In this document: piece after piece, positions 42,767 through 62,439 of the stretch
Layout: each line of letters starts with the position of its first letter
Position numbering within the stretch: position 1 is the first letter of the stretch
NCBI GenBank assembly: GCA_002842095.1
Contig: PHCB01000006.1
Coordinates: forward strand, 3,814 to 67,813
Source: a candidate division BRC1 bacterium HGW-BRC1-1
Lineage (GTDB): Bacteria > Sumerlaeota > Sumerlaeia > Sumerlaeales > Sumerlaeaceae
Direction of reading: 5' to 3'
DNA: 64,000 nt
Notes under the pieces: model-generated
Database searches by the model: none
Seen by the model: only the letters and a program-made list of their open reading frames with translations
Told to the model about the DNA's origin: nothing
Program-made: the position numbers and the translations under genes

Positions 42767-44245
42767 TTAGTAGTTAAGCCACTCGTTCACGCCGGCCGTG
42801 ACGGCCATGGTGACGGTCGCAGGGGCCGGAGTGGTGTAGCTGTTGGCACCGGCGGGGGAATAAACACGCAGGTACTCCGCCGAGGAGTTGGACCCGTAGA
42901 AGTTTCCGGCAGCGTCAAAGGCGGCGTCGCGGGACGTGGTGCCGGTATAAGTGGCGCCAGCTTCATAGGCCACTGTGACTGTCGGGAACGTGCCGATCTC
43001 CAGCACCTTCATTCCAGCGGACACAGAATACACCAGTTTGGTGCCGTCGGGGCTGATATCCATGCCGCCCTGGGTGGTGGCCGCAAGGCCAACTCCGCCG
43101 GGTAGATTCGTGAAGGAGTTGAAGTCCACCGTCTGAGCAGGGGAGGTTGTGACGTGGATAAGAGCCGGAACCGCAGCGCCATCAGTGCTTCGATTCTGGC
43201 TGATCCACCAGCCGTTGTTTCCCGGCGCGATGGTGCTGTTCATGTTCTGCTGCAGGTTTCCAGCGGCGAAATCGTCGTAGGTGACGGTGGGGGCGGTATT
43301 GTAACCACTCGTCGCCGTGCCGATGGCGTAGCTGTAAAGGCTGCCTTTGCCCTCACCCAGGGTTGCGGCGGTGAGATCAAGGTCTTCATCGAGGGTGGTC
43401 ATCACACGACCACTTCCCGTGCCGGCCACATAAAGTCCACCAATGCTGCCGTGGAGGCCTGTACGCAAGCCGCCTGCGCCACGCACGATCGTCGAATCGA
43501 ACAGTTCCGAGAAGGCATTCGCAGGATTAGCCGCATCCATGATCCAGACGCCCGAGTGGGAATCTGACCAATCGCAGATGAACGGCGCGCCGTCAGGCGC
43601 TACACGAACACGGAAGGGGCTGGAATTGCCCACCCATGCGACGCCACCATTATAGGCGGTGTCCACCTGTCCGGTGATGTCCTGGAAGTCGTTCGACAAA
43701 ATGTAAACGCCATCCGTCATTGCAAGGCGCCCGTCGGCCGTGTTCACCGGCGTGGCGGCAACGCTGCCGGCATTGTTGACCACGTAAATCCGTCCGAAGG
43801 TCGCGTTGGCAGGGTTCTTGTCCACGGCCACACCATAAGGCGTGTAGAAGTTGAGGAACTTGTTGCCAGCGGGCAAGGGCCCCTCATCGCTGATCTTGGT
43901 GACAGCGCCATAGCCACTGGCGGCGGCGGTCACTTCGAAGGAATAGCTGCCGGCGGCCACATTGGCGGAGGCGTCATTCTTGCCGTCCCAAGCGACGGTG
44001 TTCAGACCCTTCAACTGCGACCCTGCGGCGATGGTGCGCACCACGGTGGTGGCGGGCAGCGGGCCCTTCACCTTCACGCTCACGCCGGTATCGGCGTTCT
44101 CGTTCAGGCGATAGCTGATGTTGTAGTTGTTACCACCCGTATTGGTGGCGGAAAGGTGCGCGGCGTAAACGTTTGCGTGACTGCTGGCGGCACTGCAAAG
44201 CAGCCCTGCCACAGCACACGAAATTGCGAAATGTTTGATGCTCAT
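42767..44245 (-). CDS. Secreted protein with an N-terminal FlgD-Ig-like domain followed by beta-propeller-like repeats
   Basis: Signal peptide MSIKHFAISCAVAGLLCSAASSHA. Ig-like domain SYRLNENADTGVSVKVKGPLPATTVVRTIAAGSQLKGLNTVAWDGKNDASANVAAGSYSFEVTA matches the FlgD Ig-like pattern (…G.H.F.WDG.D..G…G.Y.F.V.A). Confidence 0.5.
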   Translation of the reverse strand: MSIKHFAISCAVAGLLCSAASSHANVYAAHLSATNTGGNNYNISYRLNENADTGVSVKVKGPLPATTVVRTIAAGSQLKGLNTVAWDGKNDASANVAAGSYSFEVTAAASGYGAVTKISDEGPLPAGNKFLNFYTPYGVAVDKNPANATFGRIYVVNNAGSVAATPVNTADGRLAMTDGVYILSNDFQDITGQVDTAYNGGVAWVGNSSPFRVRVAPDGAPFICDWSDSHSGVWIMDAANPANAFSELFDSTIVRGAGGLRTGLHGSIGGLYVAGTGSGRVMTTLDEDLDLTAATLGEGKGSLYSYAIGTATSGYNTAPTVTYDDFAAGNLQQNMNSTIAPGNNGWWISQNRSTDGAAVPALIHVTTSPAQTVDFNSFTNLPGGVGLAATTQGGMDISPDGTKLVYSVSAGMKVLEIGTFPTVTVAYEAGATYTGTTSRDAAFDAAGNFYGSNSSAEYLRVYSPAGANSYTTPAPATVTMAVTAGVNEWLNY

Positions 44246-44658
44246 AAAAGCCCTCCAAGCTATAAGATGCAGTTCGATTGGATGCAAATCCCTTTGTGGG
44301 GAATCCTGACGATACCCTAACGTATCCGTTTGAAGAGAATGAAAAAGCCACCCGTCAACTTACGTCACGGCATTGCCAGCGTTTATCCAATGGCAAATTA
44401 TTGAACCATCAAGCAGGGCTGAGTCAACCTGCTTTTGGTCGGGGATTGCATATTTTTCTATTTTCGCGACGGGACGCGTCATTCTGACGGCTTCCTCAAA
44501 CGTGAGTCTGGGGCTACGCGCGGCAATTAGATTGATGGGAACCATGCAAAACGTCCTATGGGGATGCTGTACGGGGCGATAATGCCAGAAGCGGCGGTGG
44601 AGACTTCAGCAGTCCCCTGTCCTCTACAAGTCGACGCCTCGCCCCACTTTTTCTTCAA

Positions 44659-44895: not shown

Positions 44896-46344
44896 ATGAA
44901 AAGATTACTTTTTGCAGCCTTGCTTGCGGGCGGACTTGTATCCGCGGCGCAGGCAGTCCCGTACGCGGGACAGATTCGCGTGAGCAGCTTGAGCGTGGCC
45001 CAGGGTGTCGGGCTAACGATCAACTACCAACTTAATGAAACCGCCGACAGTGTAGGTATCGAAATTCGCAATCTGTCGAACGTCGTTGTGGCGACTTTCA
45101 CCGGAACGGCCGCCCAAGGCGCCAATAGTGTGGCATGGAACGGCACTGCGGATAACGCTGCCGGTGCTGCCGTAACGGCCGGCAACTACCGCGTCCGCAT
45201 CACGGCCAACAAGAACGTTCCGCTGGGCTGGACGGAATTCGCGTCCAACCGCTCGGTGGGTAATTATGGTACGGCAACCATCCTGAACACGATATTCGAT
45301 GGCTATTCGGGCCGCTCCTTCATCCTCTCGCGCAACACAGACAGCCCGGCGTTTGGCTACGTGCTCGGTATCACCTCGTATCTCACGACTACCAACCATG
45401 CCGCAGCAGTCGTGTTTGATTCAGACCTCAGCATCTCCGCCGGCGACGACGGCTTCGCCTCGCGCAAACTGAAGGGCTTCGGCGACGGCGTGGCCATCAC
45501 GAACAACACCGCTTTCTGGGATGCCGTGATTGATCCCGATGATCCCACGCGCGTGTGGGCCACCGGTCAGGGTGGAGTTGGCGCTGGAGCCAATCAGACA
45601 GGACTCATGACCGCCAGCCCGATTTTGTCGGACAACCTTGTGGACGCGGATCCATTCGACCGTGCGGCTGTAATCCTGCCCCGTGGGTTGGAAGTAAAGA
45701 CTATCAGTGGCACCAAATACGCCTTCCTCACGGGTGGCACTGGTATCATCAACCGCGTGGTGATTGATGGCACCAACAACGTGCCGGACGTGGCAGCGGT
45801 GGATATTCTCGGTGTATCGGCAGTGTACTCGCGCGACGTTCGCTTCGATGCAGCTGGCAACCTCTACTACACCACGCGCGACGTCGCCGGTGGTAACATT
45901 TACCGCTGGGATGCAGCACTCGTGGCTTCCGCCGTGGCCGACAGCCTGACGCCTGCCAACGCCTCGTGGACCATCACGGGCACCGCTACTGCTGCCAACA
46001 TGATGAACGCTGCCATCGCTCCCAACGGCGACGTTTATACGCTGGCGGTTACGGGCACCGAGCGCGGTATCTATCTCGTTGGCAATATCTCCGCGCCGAC
46101 GCTGACCAAAACTCTGGCCCTGGCTGACCGCGTGGTCGATTACGTGGCCATCCCCTGGCAGCCCAGCACCGCCGGTGGACGCATTGCCGTGGATATCGCG
46201 GGCAACGTGTATGCCACGGATAACTCCGTGGAGCAGGTGCGTGCCTTCAGCCCCGGTGGCAACACCTCCCAGATTGTGGTTGCTCCCTCCAGCGAAACCT
46301 TCGCCGTGACGGCCGCCAACGTATCGGGTTGGGGCCTGTACTGA
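44896..46344 (+). CDS. Secreted protein with an N-terminal FlgD-Ig-like domain plus beta-propeller-like repeats (divergent paralog of 42767..44245)
   Basis: Signal peptide MKRLLFAALLAGGLVSAAQA; INYQLNETADSVGIEIRNLSNVVVATFTGTAAQGANSVAWNGTADNAAGAAVTAGNYRVRITA; shares …RFDAAGNLYYT… style repeats with the paralog. Confidence 0.5.
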   Translation: MKRLLFAALLAGGLVSAAQAVPYAGQIRVSSLSVAQGVGLTINYQLNETADSVGIEIRNLSNVVVATFTGTAAQGANSVAWNGTADNAAGAAVTAGNYRVRITANKNVPLGWTEFASNRSVGNYGTATILNTIFDGYSGRSFILSRNTDSPAFGYVLGITSYLTTTNHAAAVVFDSDLSISAGDDGFASRKLKGFGDGVAITNNTAFWDAVIDPDDPTRVWATGQGGVGAGANQTGLMTASPILSDNLVDADPFDRAAVILPRGLEVKTISGTKYAFLTGGTGIINRVVIDGTNNVPDVAAVDILGVSAVYSRDVRFDAAGNLYYTTRDVAGGNIYRWDAALVASAVADSLTPANASWTITGTATAANMMNAAIAPNGDVYTLAVTGTERGIYLVGNISAPTLTKTLALADRVVDYVAIPWQPSTAGGRIAVDIAGNVYATDNSVEQVRAFSPGGNTSQIVVAPSSETFAVTAANVSGWGLY

Positions 46345-47493: not shown

Positions 47494-49590
47494 TCAGGGT
47501 TGGTGGCTCTTGGCGTATTCGAGCGACACGCGCTCGACGGCGGCTTCGTTGATGACGAGGAACATGGGCATGCCGGGCGGCGGTGTGGCGGCCTGCAGGC
47601 TGTTGTCCCACAGGTAATTACGATTGGGGGGAGAGTAGTAGGTGTGCCCGCTGTCATTACGCCAGGGCTTGATGCCAACAAGGCTCTCGTAGAGGCAGAT
47701 GAGCGAGCCGTTAAAAGTGTGCTTCTTGCCGCTCCAGTTTTCGAGGTAGCGCATGACGTTGTGAGCACCACCGCTCTGGGTGATGCGTTTGCCGGCGGCG
47801 TTAAATTTCGAGCCGGTCTGGCCCATCACTATAATGAGATTGGTGATCAAACCATCGCTACCGGAGGGAGGCACGGCGGTGGGGTTTTGCGAAACAGTAA
47901 CCCTGCCTCCGGTGATCGGATCGTTCGCGGTTCCGCTTCCTTCGCGGGTGTAGCCGGTGGGAAGCGACGAAGTAAGAGGGAAAGATTTGCTGGTATTGAG
48001 AGAGGAGCGTATTTCGTATATATCGCCCACCTTAACGGACACGGGGTAATCGAGCTTCAGTTCCTGGGACGTGACAGTCACCGCATCGGCCGCGAAGACA
48101 GCCGCGACTTTGCTGGTGCTGTTAATATTGCCGACTGTATAAAGGGGCCGGTCGGTTGCGAAAGTGAAGCCCGACTGCAGGTTGCGGGGTACGCTTGTGG
48201 CGTTCTTCACGCGGATGGCGGGCATGAAATCGTCGCGGCCGTATCCGCCCCAGTTCTGGGGCGAAGTCCAGTTGTCACCGGAAGCCGGAGTGGTGCTGGC
48301 ATAAAGCACACCATTTTGAAAGGTGAGATTCCGGGCGACGATTTTAGACATGTCGATGTCGATGGTGCGCACAACTGTTTCCTGCTGGCCATCATAGAAC
48401 TCACCGATAGTCCAAATGGGGTTGTTCCCATTGGCGTCGGTGTTGGAGACGACGTTGCCATTGGAATCCACTATTTTAATGGTGTCGGGATTGCCCGGGT
48501 TACCGGTAATCTTGAGGTCGGCCATGCTTTCAAACTTGAGTTCTTGCACCGCCTGGCTGTCGCCGGGTTGCAGACGGGCGATCATGTCAGAAGCCTCGCT
48601 GCCCACGGGAAGGGGTGGGTTGATGGTGCGCGTGGCGTGGGCTTGATCGCGCACAATGCCGCCCCAGCGGGAAATGGCGTCATTCTGCCAGTTGAGATCG
48701 AGACCATCGAGATATTTGTTATTGTTGGTGTCGAGGCTACTGCCAGTCCCGACATACATGTTCAACCAGTTACCGGCGGCGTTCTTGAACTTCACGTCAC
48801 CCAGGTTTGTGTATGATTCAAGGGGATAAATATATCCAGAGTCCTTGCTGGTTGCATTGATTTTCGTATTTGTGAAGTCGTTATAGGCCCGAATGCGACC
48901 CACGGACGAGACTCGACCCCAGAAGTTCAAGCCGCTTGAGGCACCCAGCCACAGTGTGCCGTTGCAGTGAACCGGTCCACGAACGTCCATCAGAGGACCC
49001 GGGTGAAGCTCCATGTCGGGGTTGTAGAAAATAGCGAACTGATAAAGGGGAACGTAGTCGAGGGTCACGATCTTGCGGGCGGCGATACCTTGCACGCCCA
49101 GCTTGTCGGCATTGGCAGAGTTCTCGCGGACAGCGGCGACAAGCTCATATTCAAGGCGCCCCGTGGAGTAGCCGTCCCAGCGATCGGCGGGATCGTCGAT
49201 GACGCGGAACTGGAGATCGTTGGGCCCGAGACTACGCACATAAACCGCGTCTTTGTTCCCGTTCTTTACCGGTTCGTACCCATAGAACGAAGCCGGGCGC
49301 ATGGCATTAACGATGCCATTAATCTGGTCCATGCGTCCGCCGGTCTGGGGCGGACGGTTGTTCATGACAAACTGAATATCCGCCGCCATGCACGAAAGCA
49401 CGGCGTGGGCTCCCGCGAGTGAGTTTTCCACCACACGGGTGCGGTAGAGGTTGGTCATCTGAGTGGTGGTCTGGTGGATCATCAACGCCACACCGGCACT
49501 GAGAACCAGAACGAACACGCATGCCGAAAGCAGGGACGAACCCCTGCGACGACGGGAACCGGGTTTGGTGCGAAGCGATAATTTTTTCAT
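47494..49590 (-). CDS. Large (698-aa) pilus/T2SS-associated protein with an N-terminal pilin-like TM anchor (GspK/PilX/PilY-like minor pilin or tip protein)
   Basis: MKKLSLRTKPGSRRRRGSSLLSACVFVLVLSAGVALM N-terminus without Glu+5; large Asn/Gly/Thr-rich beta domain; last gene of an operon with two prepilins. Confidence 0.35.
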   Translation of the reverse strand: MKKLSLRTKPGSRRRRGSSLLSACVFVLVLSAGVALMIHQTTTQMTNLYRTRVVENSLAGAHAVLSCMAADIQFVMNNRPPQTGGRMDQINGIVNAMRPASFYGYEPVKNGNKDAVYVRSLGPNDLQFRVIDDPADRWDGYSTGRLEYELVAAVRENSANADKLGVQGIAARKIVTLDYVPLYQFAIFYNPDMELHPGPLMDVRGPVHCNGTLWLGASSGLNFWGRVSSVGRIRAYNDFTNTKINATSKDSGYIYPLESYTNLGDVKFKNAAGNWLNMYVGTGSSLDTNNNKYLDGLDLNWQNDAISRWGGIVRDQAHATRTINPPLPVGSEASDMIARLQPGDSQAVQELKFESMADLKITGNPGNPDTIKIVDSNGNVVSNTDANGNNPIWTIGEFYDGQQETVVRTIDIDMSKIVARNLTFQNGVLYASTTPASGDNWTSPQNWGGYGRDDFMPAIRVKNATSVPRNLQSGFTFATDRPLYTVGNINSTSKVAAVFAADAVTVTSQELKLDYPVSVKVGDIYEIRSSLNTSKSFPLTSSLPTGYTREGSGTANDPITGGRVTVSQNPTAVPPSGSDGLITNLIIVMGQTGSKFNAAGKRITQSGGAHNVMRYLENWSGKKHTFNGSLICLYESLVGIKPWRNDSGHTYYSPPNRNYLWDNSLQAATPPPGMPMFLVINEAAVERVSLEYAKSHQP

Positions 49591-49641
49591 GATGCGTGAT
49601 GCCCTTTCCGTGGCACGCGACAGGCGCGGACCACAAACAAA

Positions 49642-50244
49642 TCAAATAGCGCCGGGTACGAAACTAACATTGATGACAAAAGCCTGATAGCCGGGACCTG
49701 TCTCCAGATCGTCCGTTTTACGGACGGCCGCATTGCGCGAAGTATTGCGGTCGCCGACGCGAACAATCAAATTTGCGAAGGTTCGGTCGGCGGTGTCGTC
49801 CTGCTGAAACACGGGCAGGGTCGCTCCACCGGAGGTGACCTGGGAGCAAAGCGACAACCTGACGCGGGCCCCGGTGTTGGTATCAGCGGTGACACGTTCG
49901 AGAATCTGATTATCGCCGATGGTGTTAAGGTTTCCGTCTCCGTTGGCGAAAACGTATTGTCTAACGCTGTTATCGGGGCGAATGAACTGCAGCATGGTGC
50001 CGCTGTTGAGCACACCCACCGATTGCGCTTCGGCAGCTTCGAATTCGAGCGTTTGCACGAATCGGCGGGCGCTCTCCTCCATGCGGGTGCGCGTGGTGAG
50101 GCTCTTGGCGGCGCGGGCGTAAATGACCATGGTGCTGGCCATGGCAATACCCGCCATGGCGAAGATGGACAGCGCCACGATCATCTCTGTGAGGGTTACG
50201 CCGCGAGTGCGCAAGCGGGTGAATGGCTTAGAGGCGGTTATCAT
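49642..50244 (-). CDS. Prepilin-type (type IV pilin / T2SS pseudopilin-like) protein
   Basis: Class III signal: …TRG|VTLTEMIVALSIFAMAGIA with Glu at +5. Confidence 0.65.
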   Translation of the reverse strand: MITASKPFTRLRTRGVTLTEMIVALSIFAMAGIAMASTMVIYARAAKSLTTRTRMEESARRFVQTLEFEAAEAQSVGVLNSGTMLQFIRPDNSVRQYVFANGDGNLNTIGDNQILERVTADTNTGARVRLSLCSQVTSGGATLPVFQQDDTADRTFANLIVRVGDRNTSRNAAVRKTDDLETGPGYQAFVINVSFVPGAI

Positions 50245-50966
50245 TAATTAGCCCTCGCGACAAATACCGTGCGGTTGATGGTCTGGTGGCGCGACCCATC
50301 ACCCCAGGTGATGGTGATGCGTGCGGTTTTACCATCGTCGATATAGAATTTTGACGTAGAGTCGGGATTCAGCGACCAGTTGGTCGAGGTTGCCCCGGTC
50401 AGATCGGCGGTCAAACTGAGCGTGTTTGCGGTGTTGCTTTGAATGCGCATAATCTGTGTGCGCCCGAGACCCTCGGTGATGGTGACGTAATGCCCCGTCC
50501 ATTCGTTGGTATTCCAAGCCGACAAACCAGCCGGGAAAGATGCGGTGAGGCTATTGCCGGTGGCCGACGCCACGCTCCCCCATCCTGTGAAGGTAAAAGA
50601 AACGTTATAAATCGTAGACGCCGATGGCTCGGAGGGGTTGCTATACACCGTTTGGGGGGTGAGAAATAGGCGGGCAAAGGCTCCCGACGGAGCTGCCTGA
50701 TCACCCAGATAGGCCGGAGTTGACGCGCGGATCATGGATGCATATTTTACAGCCAGATTGACGCCGTAAAGATGCTGGGTGTTGACCTCAGCCTGACGCG
50801 CGGTGAAAACCATGGCGCTGATGAAGGCCAGCGTGGTGATGGCAATGATGGCCACCGCGAACACGGCTTCGACAAGAACCATGCCTTTCTGTCGGTGAAA
50901 GCGAATGATCACAACGCACAGTCCTTGTGGGGCAAGTAGTGGGTAGGACGGATTACGGTTTTTCAT
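50244..50966 (-). CDS. Prepilin-type protein (pseudopilin-like)
   Basis: …RFHRQKG|MVLVEAVFAVAIIAITTLAF with Glu at +5. Start chosen at MKNRNP (ATG 50966); the ORF-track start at 51074 is less likely. 1-nt overlap with the next gene. Confidence 0.55.
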   Translation of the reverse strand: MKNRNPSYPLLAPQGLCVVIIRFHRQKGMVLVEAVFAVAIIAITTLAFISAMVFTARQAEVNTQHLYGVNLAVKYASMIRASTPAYLGDQAAPSGAFARLFLTPQTVYSNPSEPSASTIYNVSFTFTGWGSVASATGNSLTASFPAGLSAWNTNEWTGHYVTITEGLGRTQIMRIQSNTANTLSLTADLTGATSTNWSLNPDSTSKFYIDDGKTARITITWGDGSRHQTINRTVFVARAN

Positions 50967-51131
50967 AAGCAAACGGAGTGCCACATAATAAGTGGATCGG
51001 TGTGATGACAGAACACTGATAACGAATAGTTTAGATTTTAGGCACGGGCACCTGGCAGGGGAAAAGAGTTGCACAAAAAGAGTGCGTCGCTCATTATTTG
51101 TGCAGGCGACATGGGGGAGACCGGAGCGAGG

Positions 51132-52448: not shown

Positions 52449-54260
52449 ATGATTGCAAAAGAGCTTGCTAACGCCGTACGGGATTTTGCCCGGGGAGCCG
52501 ACGCGCAAACCTTGCGCGAAACGGTGGACTTCCTGGCAGAGGCGATGGAACAACCCGACACCGCCACGCGGGTGGAGGACGCCTTTTCGCGCGATCTGGA
52601 TTTTGGCACGGGGGGTTTGAGGGGCATCATGGGGCCGGGTCCGAACCGCATGAATCGGATGACGCTGGCGCGGGCCACGCAGGGATTTGCCAACTACATT
52701 CGCGGGGCGGCGGTGGACAATCCCGCCGTTTGCATCGCATACGATTCGCGCCGGCGCTCGCGCGAATTCGCCGAGGTGGCCGCGGGTGTTCTGGCTGGCA
52801 ACGGCGTGCGCGCGCTGGTGTTCGAGGATGTGCGGGCGACGCCCATCCTTTCGTTTGCGGTGCGGCACGAGGGCGCCACGGGCGGCATCGTGGTGACGGC
52901 GAGTCACAACCCGAAAGAGTATAACGGCTACAAAGTATATTGGCGCGATGGGGCGCAGGTCATTCCGCCGCAGGACCGGGGCATTATTGCCGAAGTGCGT
53001 CAGGTGGCGGGGGGCGATGCGATACGCCAGGTGGATTTCAGCGAAGGGCTGAAGTCGGGCATGATCCGATTGCTGGGCCGCGAAATTGACGAGGCTTATC
53101 TGGCGGCGATCGACGTGCAACGATGCCTGCGCGAGACGGCCACGAAACACGGTGGGGATTTGTCCATCGTGTACACACCCCTGCATGGCACGGGTGTACG
53201 GTCGGTGCCGCCGGCGCTGGCGGCATGGGGATTCACGAACGTGAATCTGGTGCGCGAACAGGCGGAGCCCGACGGCGAATTTCCCACGGCACCCAGCCCG
53301 AACCCCGAGGAGCGAGACGCGCTGAAGCTGGCGCTGGAACTGGCCCGCGAGGAGAATGCGGATATCGTGATGGCGACCGACCCCGACGCCGACCGCATCG
53401 GCGTGGCGGTGCGCCACGAGGGCGAGATGCGTTTGCTTACCGGGAACGAAATGGGGGCGCTGCTGGTGTGGTGGTTGTGCAACGGAAGCATGCGCGGTGG
53501 AACCGACCCGGAGAATGGGTTGGTGGTGAAATCGATCGTCACCACGGAACTGATTCGCGCCGTGGCCGAGGCGAAGAATGTGGCCGTGGAGGATGTGCTG
53601 ACCGGCTTCAAATGGATTGCCCGTGTGATGCGCCTGAACGAGGAGGCGCAGGCCGAGGGTAAACCCGGGAAAAATTTCCTCATGGGTTGCGAGGAAAGTT
53701 ATGGCTATCTGGTGGGCGACCATGCGCGCGATAAGGATGCCGTGGTGACAGCCTGCGTGACCGCTGAAATGGCACTGTGGGCGAAACACAATGGCAAGAC
53801 GCTGGTGGATTTGCTGCATGAACTTTTCACCCGCCACGGCGTTCACGTGGAGAGCCAGCTGAGCAAGACCATGAAGGGCGTGACGGGGATGCAGGCCATG
53901 GCGGAAATGATGGACGCCCTGCGGGCCGATCCTCCGAAAGAGGTTGCAGGCATTGCGGTGAAGGAAGTGCTGGATGTGGAAAAAAACATTGTGAGAGAGA
54001 TGACCTCGGGCACCACAAAAGAAGGTCCCGACCTTCCCGCCAGCAATGTTTTGATCTTCCGGCTCATGGATGGCAGCGTGGTGGTGGCTCGTCCGTCGGG
54101 GACGGAACCGAAGATTAAATTTTATTTCATGGTGGTTGACCGCGAGGGCATTCCCTTCGCGGATGCGGGGGTTCTGGGTGAGCGTCTGGACGCCTGCCGC
54201 GCAAAAGAAGAAGCTTTGAAGGCCGATTTTAATGGAAAGCTTGAAGCACTGAGCCGTTAG
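52449..54260 (+). CDS. Alpha-D-phosphohexomutase (phosphoglucomutase/phosphomannomutase family, PgcA-like)
   Basis: Active-site TASHNPKEYNGYKVYW; metal-binding DPDADR; sugar-binding GCEESYGYL. ORF-track start at 52293 is upstream; ATG 52449 (MIAKELANAV) is preferred. Confidence 0.8.
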   Translation: MIAKELANAVRDFARGADAQTLRETVDFLAEAMEQPDTATRVEDAFSRDLDFGTGGLRGIMGPGPNRMNRMTLARATQGFANYIRGAAVDNPAVCIAYDSRRRSREFAEVAAGVLAGNGVRALVFEDVRATPILSFAVRHEGATGGIVVTASHNPKEYNGYKVYWRDGAQVIPPQDRGIIAEVRQVAGGDAIRQVDFSEGLKSGMIRLLGREIDEAYLAAIDVQRCLRETATKHGGDLSIVYTPLHGTGVRSVPPALAAWGFTNVNLVREQAEPDGEFPTAPSPNPEERDALKLALELAREENADIVMATDPDADRIGVAVRHEGEMRLLTGNEMGALLVWWLCNGSMRGGTDPENGLVVKSIVTTELIRAVAEAKNVAVEDVLTGFKWIARVMRLNEEAQAEGKPGKNFLMGCEESYGYLVGDHARDKDAVVTACVTAEMALWAKHNGKTLVDLLHELFTRHGVHVESQLSKTMKGVTGMQAMAEMMDALRADPPKEVAGIAVKEVLDVEKNIVREMTSGTTKEGPDLPASNVLIFRLMDGSVVVARPSGTEPKIKFYFMVVDREGIPFADAGVLGERLDACRAKEEALKADFNGKLEALSR

Positions 54261-54405
54261 CTCTGCCCGTGAGAGGTGAGGAACGTCTCCTGATGAAGTC
54301 GTTTTCTGTTGCGGACAAAAGCATTGACTTGCATCGTTGATCAACCATGGTTTGAAGCACATCAGTTCACCGTCTGGGTGAACGGAGAAAGGTCGTTATC
54401 ACGCA

Positions 54406-55509
54406 ATGCGTGTGAAATATGTAGTGTTGGCAACCCTTCTGAGCGCTGCCGCAGGGCTGGCGCCGGCGCAAATGCTGGCTGAACTTGACGCGGCTCAGGC
54501 TGGGCAGAATCAACTGAACCAAGGCAGCGTCACGGGCGGCCTCGACGCGGGCGGTCTTCAGAACCGTGCAAACACCGCGGCTCAACAAGCAAATGGCTTG
54601 CCGGCCTTGCCGGGCACAAGCACCAACCTGCCAAACCCCACGGGCGGTTTTGCTCCACCAGCGGCCGGGCCTCTGCCGGGCTTGGGCGATCCCTCGTTGG
54701 GTGCACCGATGCAGGCCGGGCCCGAGGGCGCCATGGGCGATCCGGGCCTGGGTCAACCAGGAATGTACTCCCCTCAGCAGGGACAGCAGGGCGCGGTCCC
54801 CACACCAACGCCTCTTCCCACCATCGAAGTGCTCACGGGCAAGCGCGTCTTCTGTGCCGTGTGCGGCACGATGCTGGAAGATGCTTACAAAGTGCGTGTG
54901 TATGAAACCGACATGAATTCCTACGCCGACGACGGCGTTGTGGACAATGGCGTGGCCGGCGACGGTCTGCGTGGCAACGTGGAGACCATCAAAAACAATT
55001 ACGTCGGTGCCGCATGTCACGAAATTCGCACGCGGCTTATTAACGCCGTGCGCGGGGCCGAAGACATGCGCCCCCCCAGCATGATTGGCAAGTACGAGGA
55101 AAGCCCTTATTATCTGGAAGACCCTGAAAGCCGCCAGAAACGCATGGAGGCCCAGTTGCGTCAGCGTGCGCAGGAGGAAAGCACCATGCATTTCTTCCGC
55201 TATCACGTGGCTACCATCGACCCCACCGACAAGTCGGGTATGCCTTATCTCGTTAAACAAGAAGAGCAGCGGGACAATTATCTGGCCGAGTGGAACAACC
55301 GTTTCCTGGCCAAATTCCGCATGAAGTCAGAAGACCCTCAAAGCGAGTATTATCCGCTGTATATCCCCCAGCCACCCCTTCCGCCCACGCGTACACTTCC
55401 CGCTGGTTACGTCTCCCCGCAGCAGATGCGTACTGGCGCACAACCCGGTCAGATTGGAGCAGGAGCCGCCGCTGGTCCGAACATTTTCAACGGCGACCCC
55501 GTCATTTAA
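54406..55509 (+). CDS. Secreted hypothetical protein with a Gly/Pro/Gln-rich N-terminal half and a conserved-looking C-terminal domain
   Basis: Signal peptide MRVKYVVLATLLSAAAGLAPAQ; CxxC (CAVCG) motif; no family assigned. Confidence 0.45.
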   Translation: MRVKYVVLATLLSAAAGLAPAQMLAELDAAQAGQNQLNQGSVTGGLDAGGLQNRANTAAQQANGLPALPGTSTNLPNPTGGFAPPAAGPLPGLGDPSLGAPMQAGPEGAMGDPGLGQPGMYSPQQGQQGAVPTPTPLPTIEVLTGKRVFCAVCGTMLEDAYKVRVYETDMNSYADDGVVDNGVAGDGLRGNVETIKNNYVGAACHEIRTRLINAVRGAEDMRPPSMIGKYEESPYYLEDPESRQKRMEAQLRQRAQEESTMHFFRYHVATIDPTDKSGMPYLVKQEEQRDNYLAEWNNRFLAKFRMKSEDPQSEYYPLYIPQPPLPPTRTLPAGYVSPQQMRTGAQPGQIGAGAAAGPNIFNGDPVI

Positions 55510-55716
55510 CCCGTGTCGCCCTTTGGCACAGAGAATTCACTTGCTTGCCCCCCGGACTCACTTCGGGGTTGATTGTGGTCTGTTTGCAGTTTTTCAATTT
55601 GCCCGTTTCCATATCGACACGTCTGCGTGGCGCGGCAATAGCGGTGCCTTTGTTGGACATGGTCCGACATGGGTTTTAAGAGATGATATTTCAAGGATGA
55701 ATCGACACTAACAAGC

Positions 55717-56280
55717 ATGGCTGCCAGTGGTCCAAAACCCCCATCGCCCCAAGAGTTGGCGCTTGCTGATGCCGAGCACCTTATGGAATTGTGGATGCTC
55801 ACGCGTCAATATTTTCAGAAGGCGAACACGGAAGACCCCATCACGCGAGAAGATGAACAGCAATTCCTCGAGATGAAGAGCGACATCACCAAGTATCAAC
55901 GCACGGTGACGCCCAAGATGCCCGAAGGTGTGAGCTATGGGGCCGAGCGCATGACGGACTTGTTGCGTCAAAGCATCTCCATTTCGCATCTGCGCGGGTT
56001 GCCAAAGCCAGACCGAGTGGCACTGATCATCACCTGGCATAGTGTTTTTATACAGTTAACGCGGGCCGTTGGCTCGTTAAAGTTTATCTCGGAAGGTTGG
56101 ATCCCGCGGGCGCAGCAGAAGACCGGTGGATCGAACATTTCGGATTTGAAGAAGGCCGCTGGCAAGAAAACGGGCGAGAAAGCCGCTTGGACGAAGCCTA
56201 AGTTCTGGGTCATTGTGGTGTTCGTGATTGTCGGCGGCTGGTTTGCTTATCAGCGTCTTCAATCATCCGGCATATTGTAA
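55717..56280 (+). CDS. Small protein (187 aa) with a C-terminal TM helix; paralog of 60214..60624
   Basis: ELWMLTRQYFQK…ITREDEQQFLEMKSDI…ALIITWHSVFIQLTRAVGSLK aligns with RLWQEYFKFF…ITEQQEKQFFQLMNIL…LLIDWHTLFISMNKTIGKLK in the downstream paralog. Confidence 0.5.
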   Translation: MAASGPKPPSPQELALADAEHLMELWMLTRQYFQKANTEDPITREDEQQFLEMKSDITKYQRTVTPKMPEGVSYGAERMTDLLRQSISISHLRGLPKPDRVALIITWHSVFIQLTRAVGSLKFISEGWIPRAQQKTGGSNISDLKKAAGKKTGEKAAWTKPKFWVIVVFVIVGGWFAYQRLQSSGIL

Positions 56281-56380
56281 TAAAGTTTTTACCCCCGGGC
56301 TCCGGCGGCTTTGGCCGGCGGAAAGCACGGGTTTGCAAGGTAGGATTGTTTAACAGGGTTCCACGAGAGAAGACAGGTTA

Positions 56381-59300
56381 GTGAGGGTGAGCATCGTGAG
56401 AAACGTTCGCAGGCTCAAGATTGAGAAGATTGCAGCCGTGGCCATCATGGCGGCATTTTGTTTTGCGCCGTTGGGTTGCAGCAAGCAGCGCGCAGACCTC
56501 AGCTTGAAAAAAGCCAATAACAATATAAATACGGCCCGCAGTTGGGACGCCGATAAGTACGACGAGAGCAAGGCCGACTTTAACGCAGCGGCTGAGGCTG
56601 CGAAGGCGGCGCAATCGTCGATGGATGGGCAGCAATATCCCCAAGCCCTGACATCTGCGCAAGACGCCGTGAAAAAGAGCGAGGCTGCCATCAATGCGGC
56701 CAAGGTGCGGTTCGCAGAACAAAACCGTACCGCTGCCAAAACGGCCCTCGACGTGGCGAACAAGAACAACGGTCGCGACGAAGACCAAAAACTCTTCGAT
56801 GAGGCTCAGGAACAACTGACCGTTGCCGAGGAAAAACTCGCCAAGCAGAAGTATGAGGACTCCATCGAAGCGAGCGCCAAGGCCGTCAGCGCCGTGGATC
56901 AGCTTCTGGCCCGCTTGAAAAACGAGAGCGAGAAGATGCTCGAGGATCTGCAAACCAAGCGCAAGAACCTCGAAGACGCCCAGGCGAACAACTTCCTGCC
57001 CAACTCCCTCATCAATATTAACAACGCCATCAATCAGGTGGAAAAGAAAGTCAAAGAAGAGCGCGACTACAAGCAGGCGCTCATTATTGCCAAGGCCGCA
57101 GCCACTGAGGCAGACGAAAACCTGAATGAAACCAAGAAGCGCCATGGCAAGCAATTGCTGGAAACTCTGGAGAGCAAAATCGCCGAGGCGATCAGTGAAG
57201 AGGCGCCCATCTACGCCGCCGAACAATTGAAGACCACGCAAGAATCCTTCGAAAGCATCCTGAAGGATTTTTACGACAACCAGTTCGACTCCGTGCTCGA
57301 CGGCGCCCAGCGGCTCGTCCCCAAGACCGATCAGCTCATCACGATCACCCGGATTGAGGCGACGAAGGACAAGATCGCCAACGTGAACAGCAGCATCACG
57401 GCGCTGAAAGAGCAGGATGTGGAACGCTACCTGCCGGGCCGTTTGCAGCCGATTCAGGTAATTGCAACGGAAGCTGAACTGCTGTTCAATAACAACGACT
57501 ACAACGGCGCGAAGCAGAAGGCGCTGGATGGTCTGGCCGAGCGCGACCGTGTGGTTGCGGCCTTCGATTCACTGGCCGAGCAGACGATCACGGTGGCCGA
57601 TCAGGCTTTGAACGCAGCAACGCAGACCTATGAGAAGATGCTCAGTTTCTTTGCGGCTCCCGCCACGCGGGTTGCTGCGGTGGATTCCCGCATCGAAGCA
57701 CGCCGCCAGAGCGAGGCTACCGACCTGGCCGCCCGCCGTAAGGCCGCCGCCGAAAACCTTGATGCCGCAAAAAACAACCGCACCCAAAGCCAGTTCAAGA
57801 AGGCTATCGAGCAGGGCAAGGAAGTCGCCGTATCTGCCGAGAGCGTGATGAACGGCACATTCAAAATCGTGGCCGAGCATGCGTTGCTGAGCGTGCAGGA
57901 CGAGATTTCGGTACTGGAGCGCGAAGGCGCCCGCGTCGAGGCTCCCCGGCAGCTTAACGAAGTGCAGGCGTTGGTGGAAGCCACGCAGAACCTGATCCGC
58001 GACAACAAAAACCGCGAGGCGGCCGAGTACACGGCAAAAGCCCGCGCTTATCTGGAGAACGTGAAGCAGGAGCTCTCGCGCCGCGCTCTCGAAGAGCGTG
58101 ACCGCGCCGACCAGATGATCCGTCGTCTGGAAGGCTCCGCTGCCACCCGCGAATTCCCGGGTGGCAGCGACCTGAACAACAAGGAAGCAATGTTCGCTGA
58201 AGTGGAACAACTGGCTTCCGAGCAGACCGCTCCCGTTCAGCTTGCGCAGACCTATGCTTCGCCCAACACGGTGGTTCCCGGACCGGGTGGGGCGTCGAAC
58301 CTGAACTCCAACAAGCAATACCCAAGTGGAACATACGCCACCGACGGCCCGGCGGGTTCTTTGAATTACGCCGCCCGCAACACGAATGAGCCCAACGGTG
58401 CCATCATCGGCACGCGCCCCGAGCCGATCGTCCGCACGCACGAGAATGCGGGCATCTCCTTCGGAAACGCGCCGTATGAGGGAGCCAATGCTCCTGGTCC
58501 GTTCGTTGCCGTCAGTGCTGCTCCGGCAGGCTCTGCCATGAGCTACTCAGCGGGAACCGGCGAAGTATCCGACATCAGCGCGGTCGTCTACGAAATCCTC
58601 AGCGACGACACCCGTGTTCGCGACATCCAGAAGTACGAGCCTGCTGCCGTGAACGAAGCGCGTGCAAAGCTGAAGGAATCGACCGATGCCCTTGTGGCGC
58701 AGAACTACGCAGCGGCGCTGACCGCCTCGAAGGAAGCGCAACGGATCATCGTGGAAGCGGAAATGCGCGCGGCAGCCGCGGCAGCTCGCGAGAACCTGCA
58801 AGCCGCAGCCGATCGCATTAACCTGGCCGAAGTTTCCTCAGCCGCCATGTTCGCCCCGGCGCAACTGATGGAAGCCATCAAACTCTTCCGCCAGTCGGAA
58901 GACTTCCTCACCAAGGGAATGAACATCGAAGCGCGCGACGCCTCGCAGCGTGCAGTCATTGCTGCCGACGACGCCCGCCTTTACAACGTGAACAAGGCCC
59001 GCGACATGGCATCGCTCTCCACCCGCTACGGCGGTTGGAAAGCCGCCCATCCCCCGCTGCTGGCAGCCGAGCAAAAAGCTTCCATCGCCGAGGACATGCT
59101 GGCCGATCCGAACACCGCCGCCCAGGGTCAGGCTCTGGCTCAGGAGGCCGTGGTTTGCGCCCAGATCGCTCTGGACGCCGCCCGCGACTTCACCTTCCAG
59201 GAGCGCCTCGACAACATCCACAAGGCGTTGAACACCGCTCTGCGCGCTGGTGCAAATTACTTCAACGTGTCTGAAGTGAAACGCCTCATCGCCGAACTGG

Positions 59301-60088
59301 CCATTGCCCGCGACGAGTATAACTCACGCAACTTCGACGCCGTGGAACTGAAGTTGAAAGACATCGAAGCCCGGCTCGCCCGCGTCATCGAAAGCACCCC
59401 GCTGGTGCTTCAGGAGAACCTGACGGACCTGACCGAGAAGCTGAACGCTCTGGTCGAGGCTGGTGCGGAAAACTTCTTCATGGCGCAGGAAGTCGACGAC
59501 GTGAAGTCGCTGATGAACCGCTCCGCCATCGACTTCCGCAAGCATGACTATCAGTCGTCCTACACGAATCTGAAGAACGCCATGAAGCTGACCGATTCCA
59601 TCGAACTGCGTCTGCAGGAGCAGGTTTACTTTGACTCGGTGACCGAGCTTTTCGCGCAACTTGACAAGGCTTTCCGCAACTTCAGCACCGTGCTGAATGC
59701 GGACCGGGCCATGCTGAAGAAGCTCGTCACGCTGCCCAACGGCATGCAGGCGTCCATCAACATCACCGGTCAGGCCAGCCCCAATCTGTTCAAAGACACC
59801 GTGAACGACATCTATCTGCGCGCCATTCATCTCAAGCCGCCGACATCGCAAGAAGGCACGCACCGCGAGTTGCTGGTAGCCATCAAGTACGCCCGCACTG
59901 CGGCCGAGAACTTCCAGAAGCTTTACATTCTGGATCAGGTCTCGCGGCCCGACGCGTACGACATCATTGAGACGGCCTTTGCCCAGATCGACAAGTCGAA
60001 GATCATGCGCAGTGAGATTCAGATCAAGCTGATCGACCCGCAAGCCCGCACCACGGTCATCCACGCCGAGAAAATCGTTAACTACTGA
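56381..60088 (+). CDS. Giant (1235-aa) secreted/lipoprotein-like alpha-helical repeat protein
   Basis: Signal peptide with Cys (…AAFCFAPLGCSKQ), then at least 8 tandem approximately 100–150-aa helical modules sharing an aromatic-A-x-x-(Q/E)-(L/V) start (IYAAEQL, MFAPAQL, YFNVSEV, FFMAQEV), reminiscent of DUF4398-type helical repeats. Highly charged, coiled-coil-like. Confidence 0.6.
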   Translation: MRVSIVRNVRRLKIEKIAAVAIMAAFCFAPLGCSKQRADLSLKKANNNINTARSWDADKYDESKADFNAAAEAAKAAQSSMDGQQYPQALTSAQDAVKKSEAAINAAKVRFAEQNRTAAKTALDVANKNNGRDEDQKLFDEAQEQLTVAEEKLAKQKYEDSIEASAKAVSAVDQLLARLKNESEKMLEDLQTKRKNLEDAQANNFLPNSLININNAINQVEKKVKEERDYKQALIIAKAAATEADENLNETKKRHGKQLLETLESKIAEAISEEAPIYAAEQLKTTQESFESILKDFYDNQFDSVLDGAQRLVPKTDQLITITRIEATKDKIANVNSSITALKEQDVERYLPGRLQPIQVIATEAELLFNNNDYNGAKQKALDGLAERDRVVAAFDSLAEQTITVADQALNAATQTYEKMLSFFAAPATRVAAVDSRIEARRQSEATDLAARRKAAAENLDAAKNNRTQSQFKKAIEQGKEVAVSAESVMNGTFKIVAEHALLSVQDEISVLEREGARVEAPRQLNEVQALVEATQNLIRDNKNREAAEYTAKARAYLENVKQELSRRALEERDRADQMIRRLEGSAATREFPGGSDLNNKEAMFAEVEQLASEQTAPVQLAQTYASPNTVVPGPGGASNLNSNKQYPSGTYATDGPAGSLNYAARNTNEPNGAIIGTRPEPIVRTHENAGISFGNAPYEGANAPGPFVAVSAAPAGSAMSYSAGTGEVSDISAVVYEILSDDTRVRDIQKYEPAAVNEARAKLKESTDALVAQNYAAALTASKEAQRIIVEAEMRAAAAAARENLQAAADRINLAEVSSAAMFAPAQLMEAIKLFRQSEDFLTKGMNIEARDASQRAVIAADDARLYNVNKARDMASLSTRYGGWKAAHPPLLAAEQKASIAEDMLADPNTAAQGQALAQEAVVCAQIALDAARDFTFQERLDNIHKALNTALRAGANYFNVSEVKRLIAELAIARDEYNSRNFDAVELKLKDIEARLARVIESTPLVLQENLTDLTEKLNALVEAGAENFFMAQEVDDVKSLMNRSAIDFRKHDYQSSYTNLKNAMKLTDSIELRLQEQVYFDSVTELFAQLDKAFRNFSTVLNADRAMLKKLVTLPNGMQASINITGQASPNLFKDTVNDIYLRAIHLKPPTSQEGTHRELLVAIKYARTAAENFQKLYILDQVSRPDAYDIIETAFAQIDKSKIMRSEIQIKLIDPQARTTVIHAEKIVNY

Positions 60089-60099
60089 GGTAACCGCCT

Positions 60100-60207
60100 G
60101 TGGACCTGAACTACGTAACTCAAGTCGAGATCATCTTCATCGTGGCCGTGCTGGCTTTTGCCGGCTATGTGTTCTATGCCCTCGACCTTTACAAGAAGGG
60201 CCGGTAA
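60100..60207 (+). CDS. 35-aa single-TM mini-protein (GTG start) 12 nt after the giant gene stop
   Basis: VDLNYVTQVEIIFIVAVLAFAGYVFYALDLYKKGR; GAGG Shine-Dalgarno sequence 8 nt upstream. Below the ORF-track size cut-off. Resembles the C-terminal TM helix of paralog 55717..56280. Confidence 0.4.
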   Translation: MDLNYVTQVEIIFIVAVLAFAGYVFYALDLYKKGR

Positions 60208-60213
60208 TCAACG

Positions 60214-60624
60214 TTGGTCTCTTCCGCGCAAAAGAAGCTTCTCAAGCAAATGACTTCCATTGAAAACCGTCTGGCTGTAGTCAGCGAGTACACCCGCCTT
60301 TGGCAGGAGTATTTCAAATTCTTCTCCGACGGCATCGATGAAAAAGACCATATCACCGAGCAGCAGGAGAAACAGTTTTTCCAACTCATGAACATCCTTG
60401 GCGTGAACCACTTCCGGTTTTCGGAAATGGCCGGAGAGTACTTCAAGGATGGCGAGATGATCCTCGACGTGATCGGAAGAACTCCAAGCCTGGACGCCAT
60501 CAAGCACATGAGCGACGCCCAGTTCTCTCCCCTGCTTATCGACTGGCACACACTGTTCATTTCCATGAACAAGACCATCGGCAAATTGAAACCCCAACTG
60601 CCGCCACCTCCTCCACAGAAGTAA
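60214..60624 (+). CDS. Small soluble protein (136 aa, TTG start, C-terminal PPPPPQK); paralog of 55717..56280 lacking the TM helix
   Basis: See the alignment under 55717..56280. Confidence 0.45.
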   Translation: MVSSAQKKLLKQMTSIENRLAVVSEYTRLWQEYFKFFSDGIDEKDHITEQQEKQFFQLMNILGVNHFRFSEMAGEYFKDGEMILDVIGRTPSLDAIKHMSDAQFSPLLIDWHTLFISMNKTIGKLKPQLPPPPPQK

Positions 60625-60652
60625 CCCCCAAGCCAGTTGGTGCGAAAAAGTA

Positions 60653-60707
60653 ATCGCCCGGCTGAGAGCGCTGTTAAAAACAGCCTCTCTGCCGGGCGTT
60701 TTTCTTT
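60653..60707 (+). terminator. Strong rho-independent terminator (approximately 20-bp imperfect stem CGCCCGGCTGAGAGCGCTGTT / AACAGCCTCTCTGCCGGGCG, then TTTTTCTTT)
   Basis: Read directly; immediately precedes a G8 run and the 9-mer array. Confidence 0.7.
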
Positions 60708-60714
60708 GGGGGGG

Positions 60715-60760
60715 GATGGACGGAATGGACGGAATGGACGATATGGACACTATGGACAGT
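60715..60760. repeat. Tandem 9-mer array GATGGACGG-AATGGACGG-AATGGACGA-TATGGACAC-TATGGACAG
   Basis: Same family as 51132 and 62535. Confidence 0.7.
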
Positions 60761-60784
60761 GTTCTAGATTGAGAAGCGCGACCC

Positions 60785-61036
60785 TCAGTGGTCCACTACA
60801 CCGTCCATGGAGCGGGAGCGGGGGTTTGTCCTGGAGCCCTGAACAATCGGTCCCAGCGCGTAATAGGCGTAGAGTCCCGCAGCCACAATAAAGATCCACC
60901 CAAACTTGCTGCCTCGCAGCAGCAGCAGCGCCAGCCCTACGGCAGCCAGCACCGCCACGATGGCCAGAGGCCCCATCAGATCGCCGGGACGTGCCGCCAG
61001 CAGCCCCATGCCATGCACCAGTGTTGTTCCCATCAT
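60785..61036 (-). CDS. Small two-TM membrane protein (83 aa) immediately downstream of the ABC substrate-binding gene
   Basis: Hydrophobic segments LLAARPGDLMGPLAIVAVLAAVGLALLLL and FGWIFIVAAGLYAYYALGPIV. Confidence 0.4.
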   Translation of the reverse strand: MMGTTLVHGMGLLAARPGDLMGPLAIVAVLAAVGLALLLLRGSKFGWIFIVAAGLYAYYALGPIVQGSRTNPRSRSMDGVVDH

Positions 61037-61044
61037 TGCACCTT

Positions 61045-62439
61045 TCAGTTGCCTGCAGGGGCGCTTGTGGGCGCTGTATCGCCCTGTGTCGCCGCCTTCG
61101 GTTCTACTTTGTTTGCTCCCGCGCCGCGCTCGGGCACCACTTCAAGGCGCTTGTCCACACGGGCTTCCAGCTCTTTCAGTTCCTGATCCGGGTCCGCATT
61201 GCGGTTCAGCACGCGGTCGACCATTACGCCGATCTCCTGCCGGATGCCATCCCAGGCCCGAATCTTCGGCTCCTGCCTGCCCAGGTCGTTTGCCACCCAA
61301 CTGGCCGCTTCGGCGTAATTGGCATTCTCAGCCATGTACTTCACCATTTCGGGGTCTCTCAGCACCGAGTAGCGGATGGGCATGTAGCCTGTCGATGTTT
61401 CCCATTTCACGCTGCTTTTGATGTTGGTGAGAAACTTAAGGAATTTCCAGGCAGCGGCGCGCTCGCCCTCGCTCTTGTTGTTGAAGATGCCCACGTTCGT
61501 GCCCTGCATTACATAGCGCGGCGAGCGGCCGGCGATGCCGGGGATGGGCGCCACCCCCCACTGGAACTTGCCCGCAACCTTCTTGGAAACGTACGGGAAA
61601 CTGGCGCTGCTGTAAATGAACATGGCGATCTGCTCGTTGGCCAGGGGGGCATCCATGTACTCGGCGTTCACGTACAGGTGCTTCTTGGGCGTCTGCAGAT
61701 TGCGCCAGAAGTTCAACACGGTGCGGGCGTCCTCGGTGTCAAAAACCGGTTTGCCCTCGGCATTCAAAAAGTCGCCCCCGCTGGCGAAATACAGCGTCGT
61801 AAAGCTTTCGCTGGCCGGCTGCACGCCGATGCCGTAGGTCTTCTGGCCGGGGCCGTCCACGTTGGTCAGTTTCACGATCACATCGCGGAACTCATCGAGG
61901 TTCTTGGGTGCCGTGGTTATGCCCGCAGCGGCCAGTCGGTCGAGGTTCATGTAGAGCGCATAGACGCTCTTGTTGAAAGGCATCGTCACCAGCTTGCCGT
62001 CGTAGCTGTTCGCCTCACGGTACACCTTCACGATGTCGTCGATCTCGCCGGGCGCCCAGCCATCGGGGCCGTTGATGTGGTCTTCCACATGATCCATCAG
62101 GTTCGCCGCGTAAAAGTCCGAGGTCCAGCTTTCGTAAACTGTGGCCAGCGCCGGGTTCTTGGCGGGGGATGTGGCGAAGGAGTTTTGAAGTTTCTGCAAC
62201 AGTTCCTGGGGGCGGCCCTGATAGAGGGGCTTGACGATGATAGTCGGATTTTCTTTCTCGAAGTCCGCCACGATAGCTTTCAATGTCCGCTCGTGGTCAC
62301 CGGCGAAATAGTGCCAGAATTCAACGACGGTTTTTCCGTCGGCGTTAACCCCTTTGTCGTCGGTTTTGGGCTTGCCACCGCATCCGGCAAGGACCAGTGC
62401 GATGAGGATGCTGAGGGCGAGAAAGGACAGACGTTTCAT
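61045..62439 (-). CDS. ABC transporter substrate-binding lipoprotein (family 1, carbohydrate type)
   Basis: MKRLSFLALSILIALVLAGCGG lipobox; EFWHYFAGDHERTLKAIVADFEKENPTIIVKP typical of sugar-binding proteins. Confidence 0.7.
   Translation of the reverse strand: MKRLSFLALSILIALVLAGCGGKPKTDDKGVNADGKTVVEFWHYFAGDHERTLKAIVADFEKENPTIIVKPLYQGRPQELLQKLQNSFATSPAKNPALATVYESWTSDFYAANLMDHVEDHINGPDGWAPGEIDDIVKVYREANSYDGKLVTMPFNKSVYALYMNLDRLAAAGITTAPKNLDEFRDVIVKLTNVDGPGQKTYGIGVQPASESFTTLYFASGGDFLNAEGKPVFDTEDARTVLNFWRNLQTPKKHLYVNAEYMDAPLANEQIAMFIYSSASFPYVSKKVAGKFQWGVAPIPGIAGRSPRYVMQGTNVGIFNNKSEGERAAAWKFLKFLTNIKSSVKWETSTGYMPIRYSVLRDPEMVKYMAENANYAEAASWVANDLGRQEPKIRAWDGIRQEIGVMVDRVLNRNADPDQELKELEARVDKRLEVVPERGAGANKVEPKAATQGDTAPTSAPAGN

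Follow-up and report, generated by a model that had tools for sequence, protein, structure and literature searches.

What does a giant exported helical protein do in the cell envelope, and do the small unannotated proteins encoded around it belong to the same system? This question is raised by a locus of candidate division BRC1 bacterium HGW-BRC1-1, to which a protein of 100% identity points as the source and which is a member of the Sumerlaeota (PMC8092238). These bacteria are globally distributed and have no cultured member, and conserved operons are among the few handles on their cell biology. The window, i.e. the whole stretch of DNA analysed and the one to which positions refer unless another locus is named, comprises 64,000 nucleotides (nt; contig PHCB01000006.1, positions 3,814 to 67,813, assembly GCA_002842095.1). 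A previous sequence-only reading had described four open reading frames (ORFs), encoding a giant protein, two small paralogs and a mini-protein, and had proposed an envelope scaffold with dedicated membrane partners. We found these ORFs to be part of a conserved five-gene operon. We consider it moderately probable that the five genes are a vertically inherited Sumerlaeota core operon encoding one membrane-anchored envelope complex. What is new here is a giant, probably lipid-anchored protein that strings DUF4398-type modules in tandem and is accompanied by four unannotated partner families; the DUF4398 domain itself was already known.

The ORF list places all four ORFs where they had been described, on the plus strand: paralog A (187 amino acids, aa, with a C-terminal transmembrane (TM) helix; 55717-56280), the giant (1235 aa, probable lipoprotein; 56381-60088), the mini-protein (35 aa, single-pass TM; 60100-60207) and paralog B (136 aa, no TM helix; 60214-60624). 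The conserved unit begins one gene earlier, with a secreted protein of 367 aa (P367; 54406-55509, plus strand), which brings the operon to five genes. Its 3' end is an intrinsic-terminator hairpin followed by a U-run (60655-60703, plus strand). With -37.1 kcal/mol (z -5.7) this hairpin was not equalled in stability by any of 200 shuffled sequences; a simple terminator scan had overlooked it, and it was spotted by eye and confirmed by RNA folding. Searches of the five proteins against Pfam, NCBIfam, PADLOC and PHROGs gave spurious sub-threshold matches only. PDB sequence searches with single sequences and with three profiles (A1, A3, A4) were empty, and no Rfam family was matched within 54000-61200.

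The operon is genuine, strongly conserved and recurs across the Sumerlaeota. When one genome per GTDB species was scanned with the alignment of B, 20 loci were returned, 18 of them labelled Sumerlaeota, Sumerlaeia or Sumerlaeaceae and two labelled just 'bacterium'; four more lineages were supplied by contig look-ups, metagenome contigs included. Among all these, the order P367-A-giant-mini-B was found in nearly every Sumerlaeota locus of judgeable length, with median intergenic gaps of 60, 62, 25 and 12 nt. The expectation that the arrangement would recur in other genomes, here with a strong terminator downstream, was thereby borne out. At its lowest, identity to the window proteins is 22-29% (giant), 25-31% (P367) and 29-45% (A and B). 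The genes flanking the module vary among lineages, indicating that the module is kept by selection and not by general synteny. One Sumerlaeaceae genome (GCA_051003195.1, contig JBPCLP010000055.1) exhibits a divided module: mini and B (locus L013, 7854-8429) lie upstream, 15.6 kb from P367-A-giant (L089, 4023-9777), on the same contig, and an unrelated 143-aa gene directly follows P367-A-giant. A supposed absence of the giant from L013 was rejected on account of this relocation.

The giant begins with a basic and hydrophobic leader ending in a lipobox cysteine (...AAFCFAPLG-C33-SKQ). Cys33 (codon 56477-56479) is invariant in an alignment of 23 orthologs, among which the lipobox occurs in the variants LGGC, AGC and VGC; the window protein has a non-canonical Pro at lipobox position -3. 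Since the leader ends in an invariant cysteine, the giant is probably a lipoprotein, processed by signal peptidase II.

An AlphaFold2 model of residues 36-1235 was all-alpha, with a predicted local distance difference test score (pLDDT) of 75.8 and a predicted template modelling score (pTM) of 0.33. According to DSSP analysis of this model, the N-terminal half (residues ~57-579; 56549-58117, plus strand) consists of seven units of ~72 aa, each with a helix of ~20 residues and then one of ~43 residues. These units are interrelated at profile level (hhalign probability 60-81%); BLAST of the giant against itself found no repeats, which are visible just at profile and structure level. A central linker rich in P, G, S and N (residues ~580-745; 58118-58615, plus strand) was delimited by composition, alignment gaps and a pLDDT below 50, the latter pointing to disorder. 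It is missing in about 60% of the orthologs (gap fraction ~0.6 in the 23-sequence alignment), which are the forms of 1065-1100 aa. In the C-terminal half (residues ~746-1235; 58616-60085, plus strand), delimited from alignment and model, more helical bundles follow, including DUF4398-type units; this half is gap-free and collinear in all orthologs of the alignment. Overall, the giant would comprise about 14 helical-bundle modules. A Foldseek search of the model against the PDB gave no match at E <0.1.

A relationship of the repeat module to DUF4398 (PF14346), which the sequence-only reading had suggested as a test, turned out positive by way of orthology. The window giant itself gave no DUF4398 match even at E up to 10, and close orthologs gave weak matches in 2 of 20 cases (best E 1.2e-3). 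The Pfam gathering threshold of 27.9 bits was exceeded in four divergent, collinear orthologs, namely those of loci L027 (66.4 bits, four stretches), L029 (58.5 bits, three stretches), L023 (57.6 bits, two stretches) and L021 (29.2 bits); matches in the giants of L024, L088 and L004 were sub-threshold. The matched stretches correspond to residues 189-262, 508-561, 804-865 and 870-928 of the window giant and fall in both of its halves. Because divergent collinear orthologs pass the threshold and their matches map to units of the window protein, the giant is, as judged by orthology, a tandem array of DUF4398-type helical modules. The name TPR repeat protein, given to ortholog P0061 by the Joint Genome Institute (JGI), was rejected, with TPR_2 detected in 3 of 20 orthologs at a best E of 3.8.

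DUF4398 is a widespread envelope domain, which hereby gains its largest known architecture together with fixed genetic partners. Its known members have one module, alone or with LysM, whereas the giant has about 14 in 1,070-1,260 aa. The former case is represented by PA2901 of P. aeruginosa, a small DUF4398 protein of 13 kDa (PMC12893005; PDB 4fm3), the latter by LipL71 of Leptospira with one DUF4398 module plus LysM (PMC5406399). Furthermore, the giant differs from the known DUF4398 proteins in belonging to a fixed operon with four unannotated partners, which makes the role of DUF4398 testable via co-expression and interaction. Unlike LipL71 with its LysM, it has no LysM or OmpA peptidoglycan-binding domain. 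A comparable case is BB0323, reportedly a protease-cleaved protein of Borrelia burgdorferi, which has a single helical domain and a C-terminal part where the giant has many modules. The N-domain of BB0323 is described as a spectrin-repeat fold that binds the dedicated partner BB0238 (PMC12758692). This partner is unrelated to A, B, mini or P367. BB0323 and the giant are not similar in sequence, a PDB search with profiles gave no match, and the likeness is one at fold level. By analogy, LipL71 and BB0323 indicate that such helical domains can occur in envelope lipoproteins and, in the case of BB0323, bind a partner. The bacterial spectrin-like rod EzrA and the eukaryotic bundles of vinculin, talin and alpha-catenin are cytoplasmic and have ~106-aa repeats or bundles of four to five helices, whereas the giant is exported and has a ~72-aa repeat; here, too, the resemblance is one of fold class. 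The periplasmic four-helix-bundle sensor domains of histidine kinases and chemoreceptors were also counted among the closest known systems.

P367, whose orthologs of ~330-400 aa are located directly upstream of A in about 20 loci, exhibits a signal peptide, a low-complexity stretch rich in G, P, A and Q, a conserved core and a poly-Pro C-terminal region. The core contains the motifs G.R...L.D...Y.DDG...D..A.D...N and W..FL..R, and 14 columns are invariant in a 20-sequence alignment; neither Pfam nor NCBIfam contains a matching family. The acidic loop Y.DDG...D..A.D...N is common to all P367 orthologs and could bind a cation. In deep lineages (L021, L024, L027, L029, L030 and L004) P367 ends with ...ASS(R/S)YF, a C-terminus that the window copy does not have.

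Each of the 24 loci examined has an ORF of 34-47 aa between the giant and B, and the supposition that the mini-ORF is conserved was thus confirmed. The conserved motif is N-Y..(V/I)E..VI..I.....Y..Y.L.LF.K. Nucleotide identities of 0.52, 0.74 and 0.38 at the first, second and third codon position indicate that the ORF is coding and under purifying selection, and a GAGG is located 8 nt 5' of its GTG start. Judged from these patterns, mini is a conserved membrane microprotein, for which the N-terminus is predicted outside and the C-terminal KKGR inside according to the positive-inside rule. JGI called it as a gene on the source contig; most gene callers miss it. It thus adds a well-supported conserved bacterial microprotein that is overlooked in most assemblies.

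In the window, mini and B share one frame and are separated by one TAA and two codons. The sequence-only reading had seen a split-gene arrangement in mini and B, with mini as the counterpart of the TM helix of A. Both parts of this interpretation had to be abandoned. The shared frame occurs in 10 of 22 loci, compared to about one third expected by chance. All B homologs examined (n=29) measure 115-155 aa and are devoid of an N-terminal TM helix, and loci in which B is fused to a TM2 domain retain a separate mini-ORF. A split gene or stop-codon read-through was therefore rejected: mini and B are not fused in any lineage, their common frame is not conserved and the TM2-fused forms of B keep mini. 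Moreover, mini and the TM tail of A are similar with an hhalign probability of 44% over 22 hydrophobic columns, a similarity that is generic for TM helices; the A tails are variable and do not contain the N-Y..E motif of mini. By the positive-inside rule, both helices would be oppositely oriented. The joint move of mini and B in GCA_051003195.1 supports a tight pairing of the two.

The paralogy of the 187-aa and 136-aa proteins, already noted from the sequence, was substantiated by pairwise BLASTP (23% identity, E 3e-8) and by four residues (S92, W111, H112, G123) invariant in a 46-sequence alignment of the A and B families. A consists of a helical-bundle domain (residues ~10-125), a Lys-rich linker, a TM helix (~163-181; 56203-56259) and a tail of 6 residues. 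B contains the same helical-bundle domain, modelled as a confident bundle (AlphaFold2 pLDDT 89.4), and a Pro-rich basic tail in place of the TM helix. Neither protein has a signal peptide. A is predicted to be tail-anchored with its bundle in the cytoplasm, since a Lys-rich stretch precedes the TM helix and only ~6 residues follow it. For B, the JGI gene call on the source contig uses an internal ATG at 60250, resulting in 124 aa. This call is probably too short: the residues KQLTSIENRL ahead of the internal ATG are conserved in homologs, which favours the TTG start at 60214 and 136 aa. No Pfam or NCBIfam family was matched by A or B, so that neither was found to belong to a common housekeeping family, and no ATPase, protease or chaperone signature was detected in them.

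The membrane anchor is exchanged between both paralogs. Window B contains no TM2 domain (PF05154); Pfam TM2 domains were found N-terminally in the B ortholog P0077 (52.7 bits) and C-terminally in P0082 (38.9 bits). At locus L088 (2361-2798 and 6216-6983) the TM tail of A is missing and B ends in a TM2 domain. At L008-L010 (L010, 7364-8092) the TM2 domain of B is N-terminal and the tail of A is retained, so both are anchored. Such anchor swapping is expected of two subunits of one membrane-tethered complex, and it is probable that A and B cooperate at the membrane.

A profile hidden Markov model of A and B, searched against 1.84 billion cluster representatives, matched 397 of these at E <=1e-3 and 237 at E <=1e-10. 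The top 150 representatives included 53 soluble (B-like) and 53 tail-anchored (A-like) proteins, 32 bitopic proteins whose periplasmic domain exceeds 60 aa, designated C, a few TM2 fusions and two tandem-triple proteins (the P0069 cluster of Limisphaerales and the P0072 cluster, 'Candidatus Binatia'). A new, putatively cytoplasmic helical-bundle domain family of about 400 cluster representatives is thereby added, with three paralog classes and no Pfam or NCBIfam model. Outside the Sumerlaeota the domain was also observed as three tandem copies in one protein of 366-384 aa, e.g. in P0216 (L032, 8001-9101, Limisphaerales) and P0072 (with a cluster member labelled 'Candidatus Binatia'). The tandem-triple protein exhibits a short basic-hydrophobic C-terminal tail, KKKGFFARLFGG. 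FUN14 and a Na/Ca exchanger are encoded next to it, and no giant or pilus gene was found nearby.

The gene order, the homologies and the predicted folds and topologies were computed here, and the moderately probable membrane-anchored envelope complex would build on them as follows. The giant would be lipid-anchored and form a long periplasmic rod with an optional, flexible linker, and the secreted P367 would be its periplasmic partner. A and B would form a heteromeric module on the cytoplasmic side of the membrane, held by the tail anchor of A or, where the anchor has been swapped, by the TM2 domain of B. Mini, always encoded beside B, would supply a TM helix along with a short, conserved N-terminus on the periplasmic side, and through this periplasmic segment the cytoplasmic module could be coupled to the lipid-anchored rod. 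The role is most likely a structural one, in which the cell envelope would be spaced, tethered or organised. Should the complex span the membrane, this would be a new way to organise a bacterial envelope. As regards the envelope scaffold of the sequence-only reading, its membrane partners agree with the predicted topology, and the scaffold as such is what we infer.

Several points weigh against a membrane-anchored complex. Its formation is deduced from gene order, DUF4398 has no known function, and the window giant itself reaches no Pfam threshold. The pTM of 0.33 for the whole protein makes shape and length of the rod tentative. A and mini each have just a few periplasmic residues, which makes coupling across the membrane speculative. 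Localisation and function are deduced as well, and the giant may be sorted to either the inner or the outer membrane if the Sumerlaeota are diderm.

An alternative that we regard as unlikely, although it survives best, is that the module is an accessory of type IV pili or DNA uptake. The bundle domain would dock on the pilus motor or platform, C would be the version encoded in the pilus operon, and A and B would link the same machine to the rod, perhaps replacing a PilMNOP-type alignment complex. The idea draws on paralog C (~340 aa). This protein begins with MIDPxLER, has the helical-bundle domain next and, beyond a TM helix, a periplasmic domain that is variable. It was found at L001 (12271-13299, minus strand), L033 (8001-8999) and L035-L087. 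In the Sumerlaeaceae metagenome-assembled genome (MAG) L001, C starts 27 nt downstream of pilC. Across 53 metagenome loci, C has pilC as its immediate upstream neighbour in 35 of the 45 cases in which this side could be assessed, and dprA as the next gene in 28 of 33; L049, for instance, has the order PilB(MshEN)-PilC-C-DprA-TopA. One of the three paralog classes thus sits in a pilB-pilC operon, and type IV pilus genes are reported in all Sumerlaeota MAGs (PMC8092238). This suggests the type IV pilus platform as a possible working partner of the helical-bundle domain.

C resembles PilN/PilO and GspL/GspM in its layout, with an N-domain in the cytoplasm, a single TM helix and a domain in the periplasm, and it is encoded directly after pilB-pilC. 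It differs from them in that its cytoplasmic part is a helical bundle and not an actin-like fold or a short peptide, and in that it has no Pfam match: none of 31 C-type proteins matched PilM/N/O or GspL/M. The window proteins A and B are further away, as they have no periplasmic domain and no adjacent pilus genes; neither they nor 10 distant family members matched PilM/N/O or GspL/M in Pfam, and A and B did not do so in NCBIfam either. In 10 of the 45 assessable loci pilC is not directly upstream of C. The adjacency of C to dprA was downgraded as a sign of competence function and may reflect plain synteny, as dprA-topA is a common housekeeping gene pair. Nothing relevant emerged from a literature search on an uncharacterised gene located between pilC and dprA.

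At the module itself, no T2SSE, T2SSF, DprA or ComEA gene was detected within ~8 kb in 19 of 20 GTDB loci, and the idea that the module is linked by neighbourhood to genes for pili or competence was rejected for this reason. What ties the module to pili is consequently the homology of its bundle domain to C. A ComEA-like (HHH_3) gene adjoins the module in two divergent lineages (L004, 7857-8615, and L006, 2956-3705; L008, 8769-9530); one of them has it ahead of the module on the same strand, the other behind the module on the opposite strand. The other 19 GTDB loci lack such a gene. Furthermore, the window contains, 4.3 kb upstream, a divergent operon of unannotated genes resembling minor pilins or pseudopilins (47494-51074, minus strand). 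It includes a 200-aa ORF (49645-50244) with the N-methylation motif PF07963 (E 1.4e-4; RG-VTLTEMIVAL), a 276-aa ORF with KG-MVLVEAVFAV and a 698-aa ORF starting with a hydrophobic anchor. Type IV pilus genes are numerous, however, and loose proximity to them is weak evidence. Doubtful, and in our opinion somewhat more so, is a far-reaching version in which the domain (LW...E..F...S...WH...G) is a new membrane-proximal adaptor of type IV filaments and the module a hitherto unrecognised trans-envelope apparatus of the Sumerlaeota, whose rod of ~14 DUF4398 modules together with the microprotein would couple the cytoplasmic side to the periplasm in a PilMNOP-type role.

The giant might also be a surface-exposed or outer-membrane-tethering protein, such as an adhesin, an S-layer-like coat or an Lpp-like strut, with the small proteins acting as export, sorting or quality-control factors. 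We consider this improbable. The lipoprotein signal with Ser or Gly at position +2, the long helical repeat array with its variable, disordered P/G/S/N-rich linker and weak fold matches to the Borrelia surface lipoproteins OspC, BBH37 and BBA65/66 agree with such a function, and the P367 C-terminus ...ASSRYF of deep lineages resembles a C-terminal sorting motif. Fast-evolving adhesins, however, behave differently from the giant, which is collinear and gap-free outside the linker with a constant number of repeat copies, and the ATPase, protease or chaperone signatures that factors of this kind might carry are missing in A and B.

Slightly less credible still is that the five genes are co-transcribed and functionally independent, their order being kept by phylogenetic inertia. 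This would be in line with the fact that all taxon-labelled loci with the module belong to one phylum. It is opposed by the persistence of the order at 22-30% protein identity while the flanks change completely, and functional coupling is favoured both by the swapping of anchors between A and B and by the move of mini together with B. That the module is a mobile cassette, derived from phages or directed against them, which a compact unannotated operon of one large protein and small partners may call to mind, is effectively refuted and receives next to no credence from us, given that PADLOC and PHROGs gave no significant match (best E 0.035-0.072), no relatives of the module were found in 2.9 million viral contigs, the GC content of the operon equals that of the remainder of the window, the module is present in all 20 Sumerlaeota representatives returned by the B-family scan and no integrase or repeats are nearby.

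Some further genes were observed around the operon. Just 3' of it, outside the conserved module, the window contains a hydrophobic ORF of 83 aa (60785-61036, minus strand). In L002 and L003 a 77-aa gene occupies a similar position, adjoining a convergent gene for a sugar-binding protein, and a gene for an HflX-type GTPase lies between this 77-aa gene and B. Upstream, two genes facing each other (42770-44287, minus strand, and 44896-46341, plus strand) encode proteins of ~480-500 aa, both with an N-terminal FlgD Ig-like domain (E 1e-9 to 2e-11).

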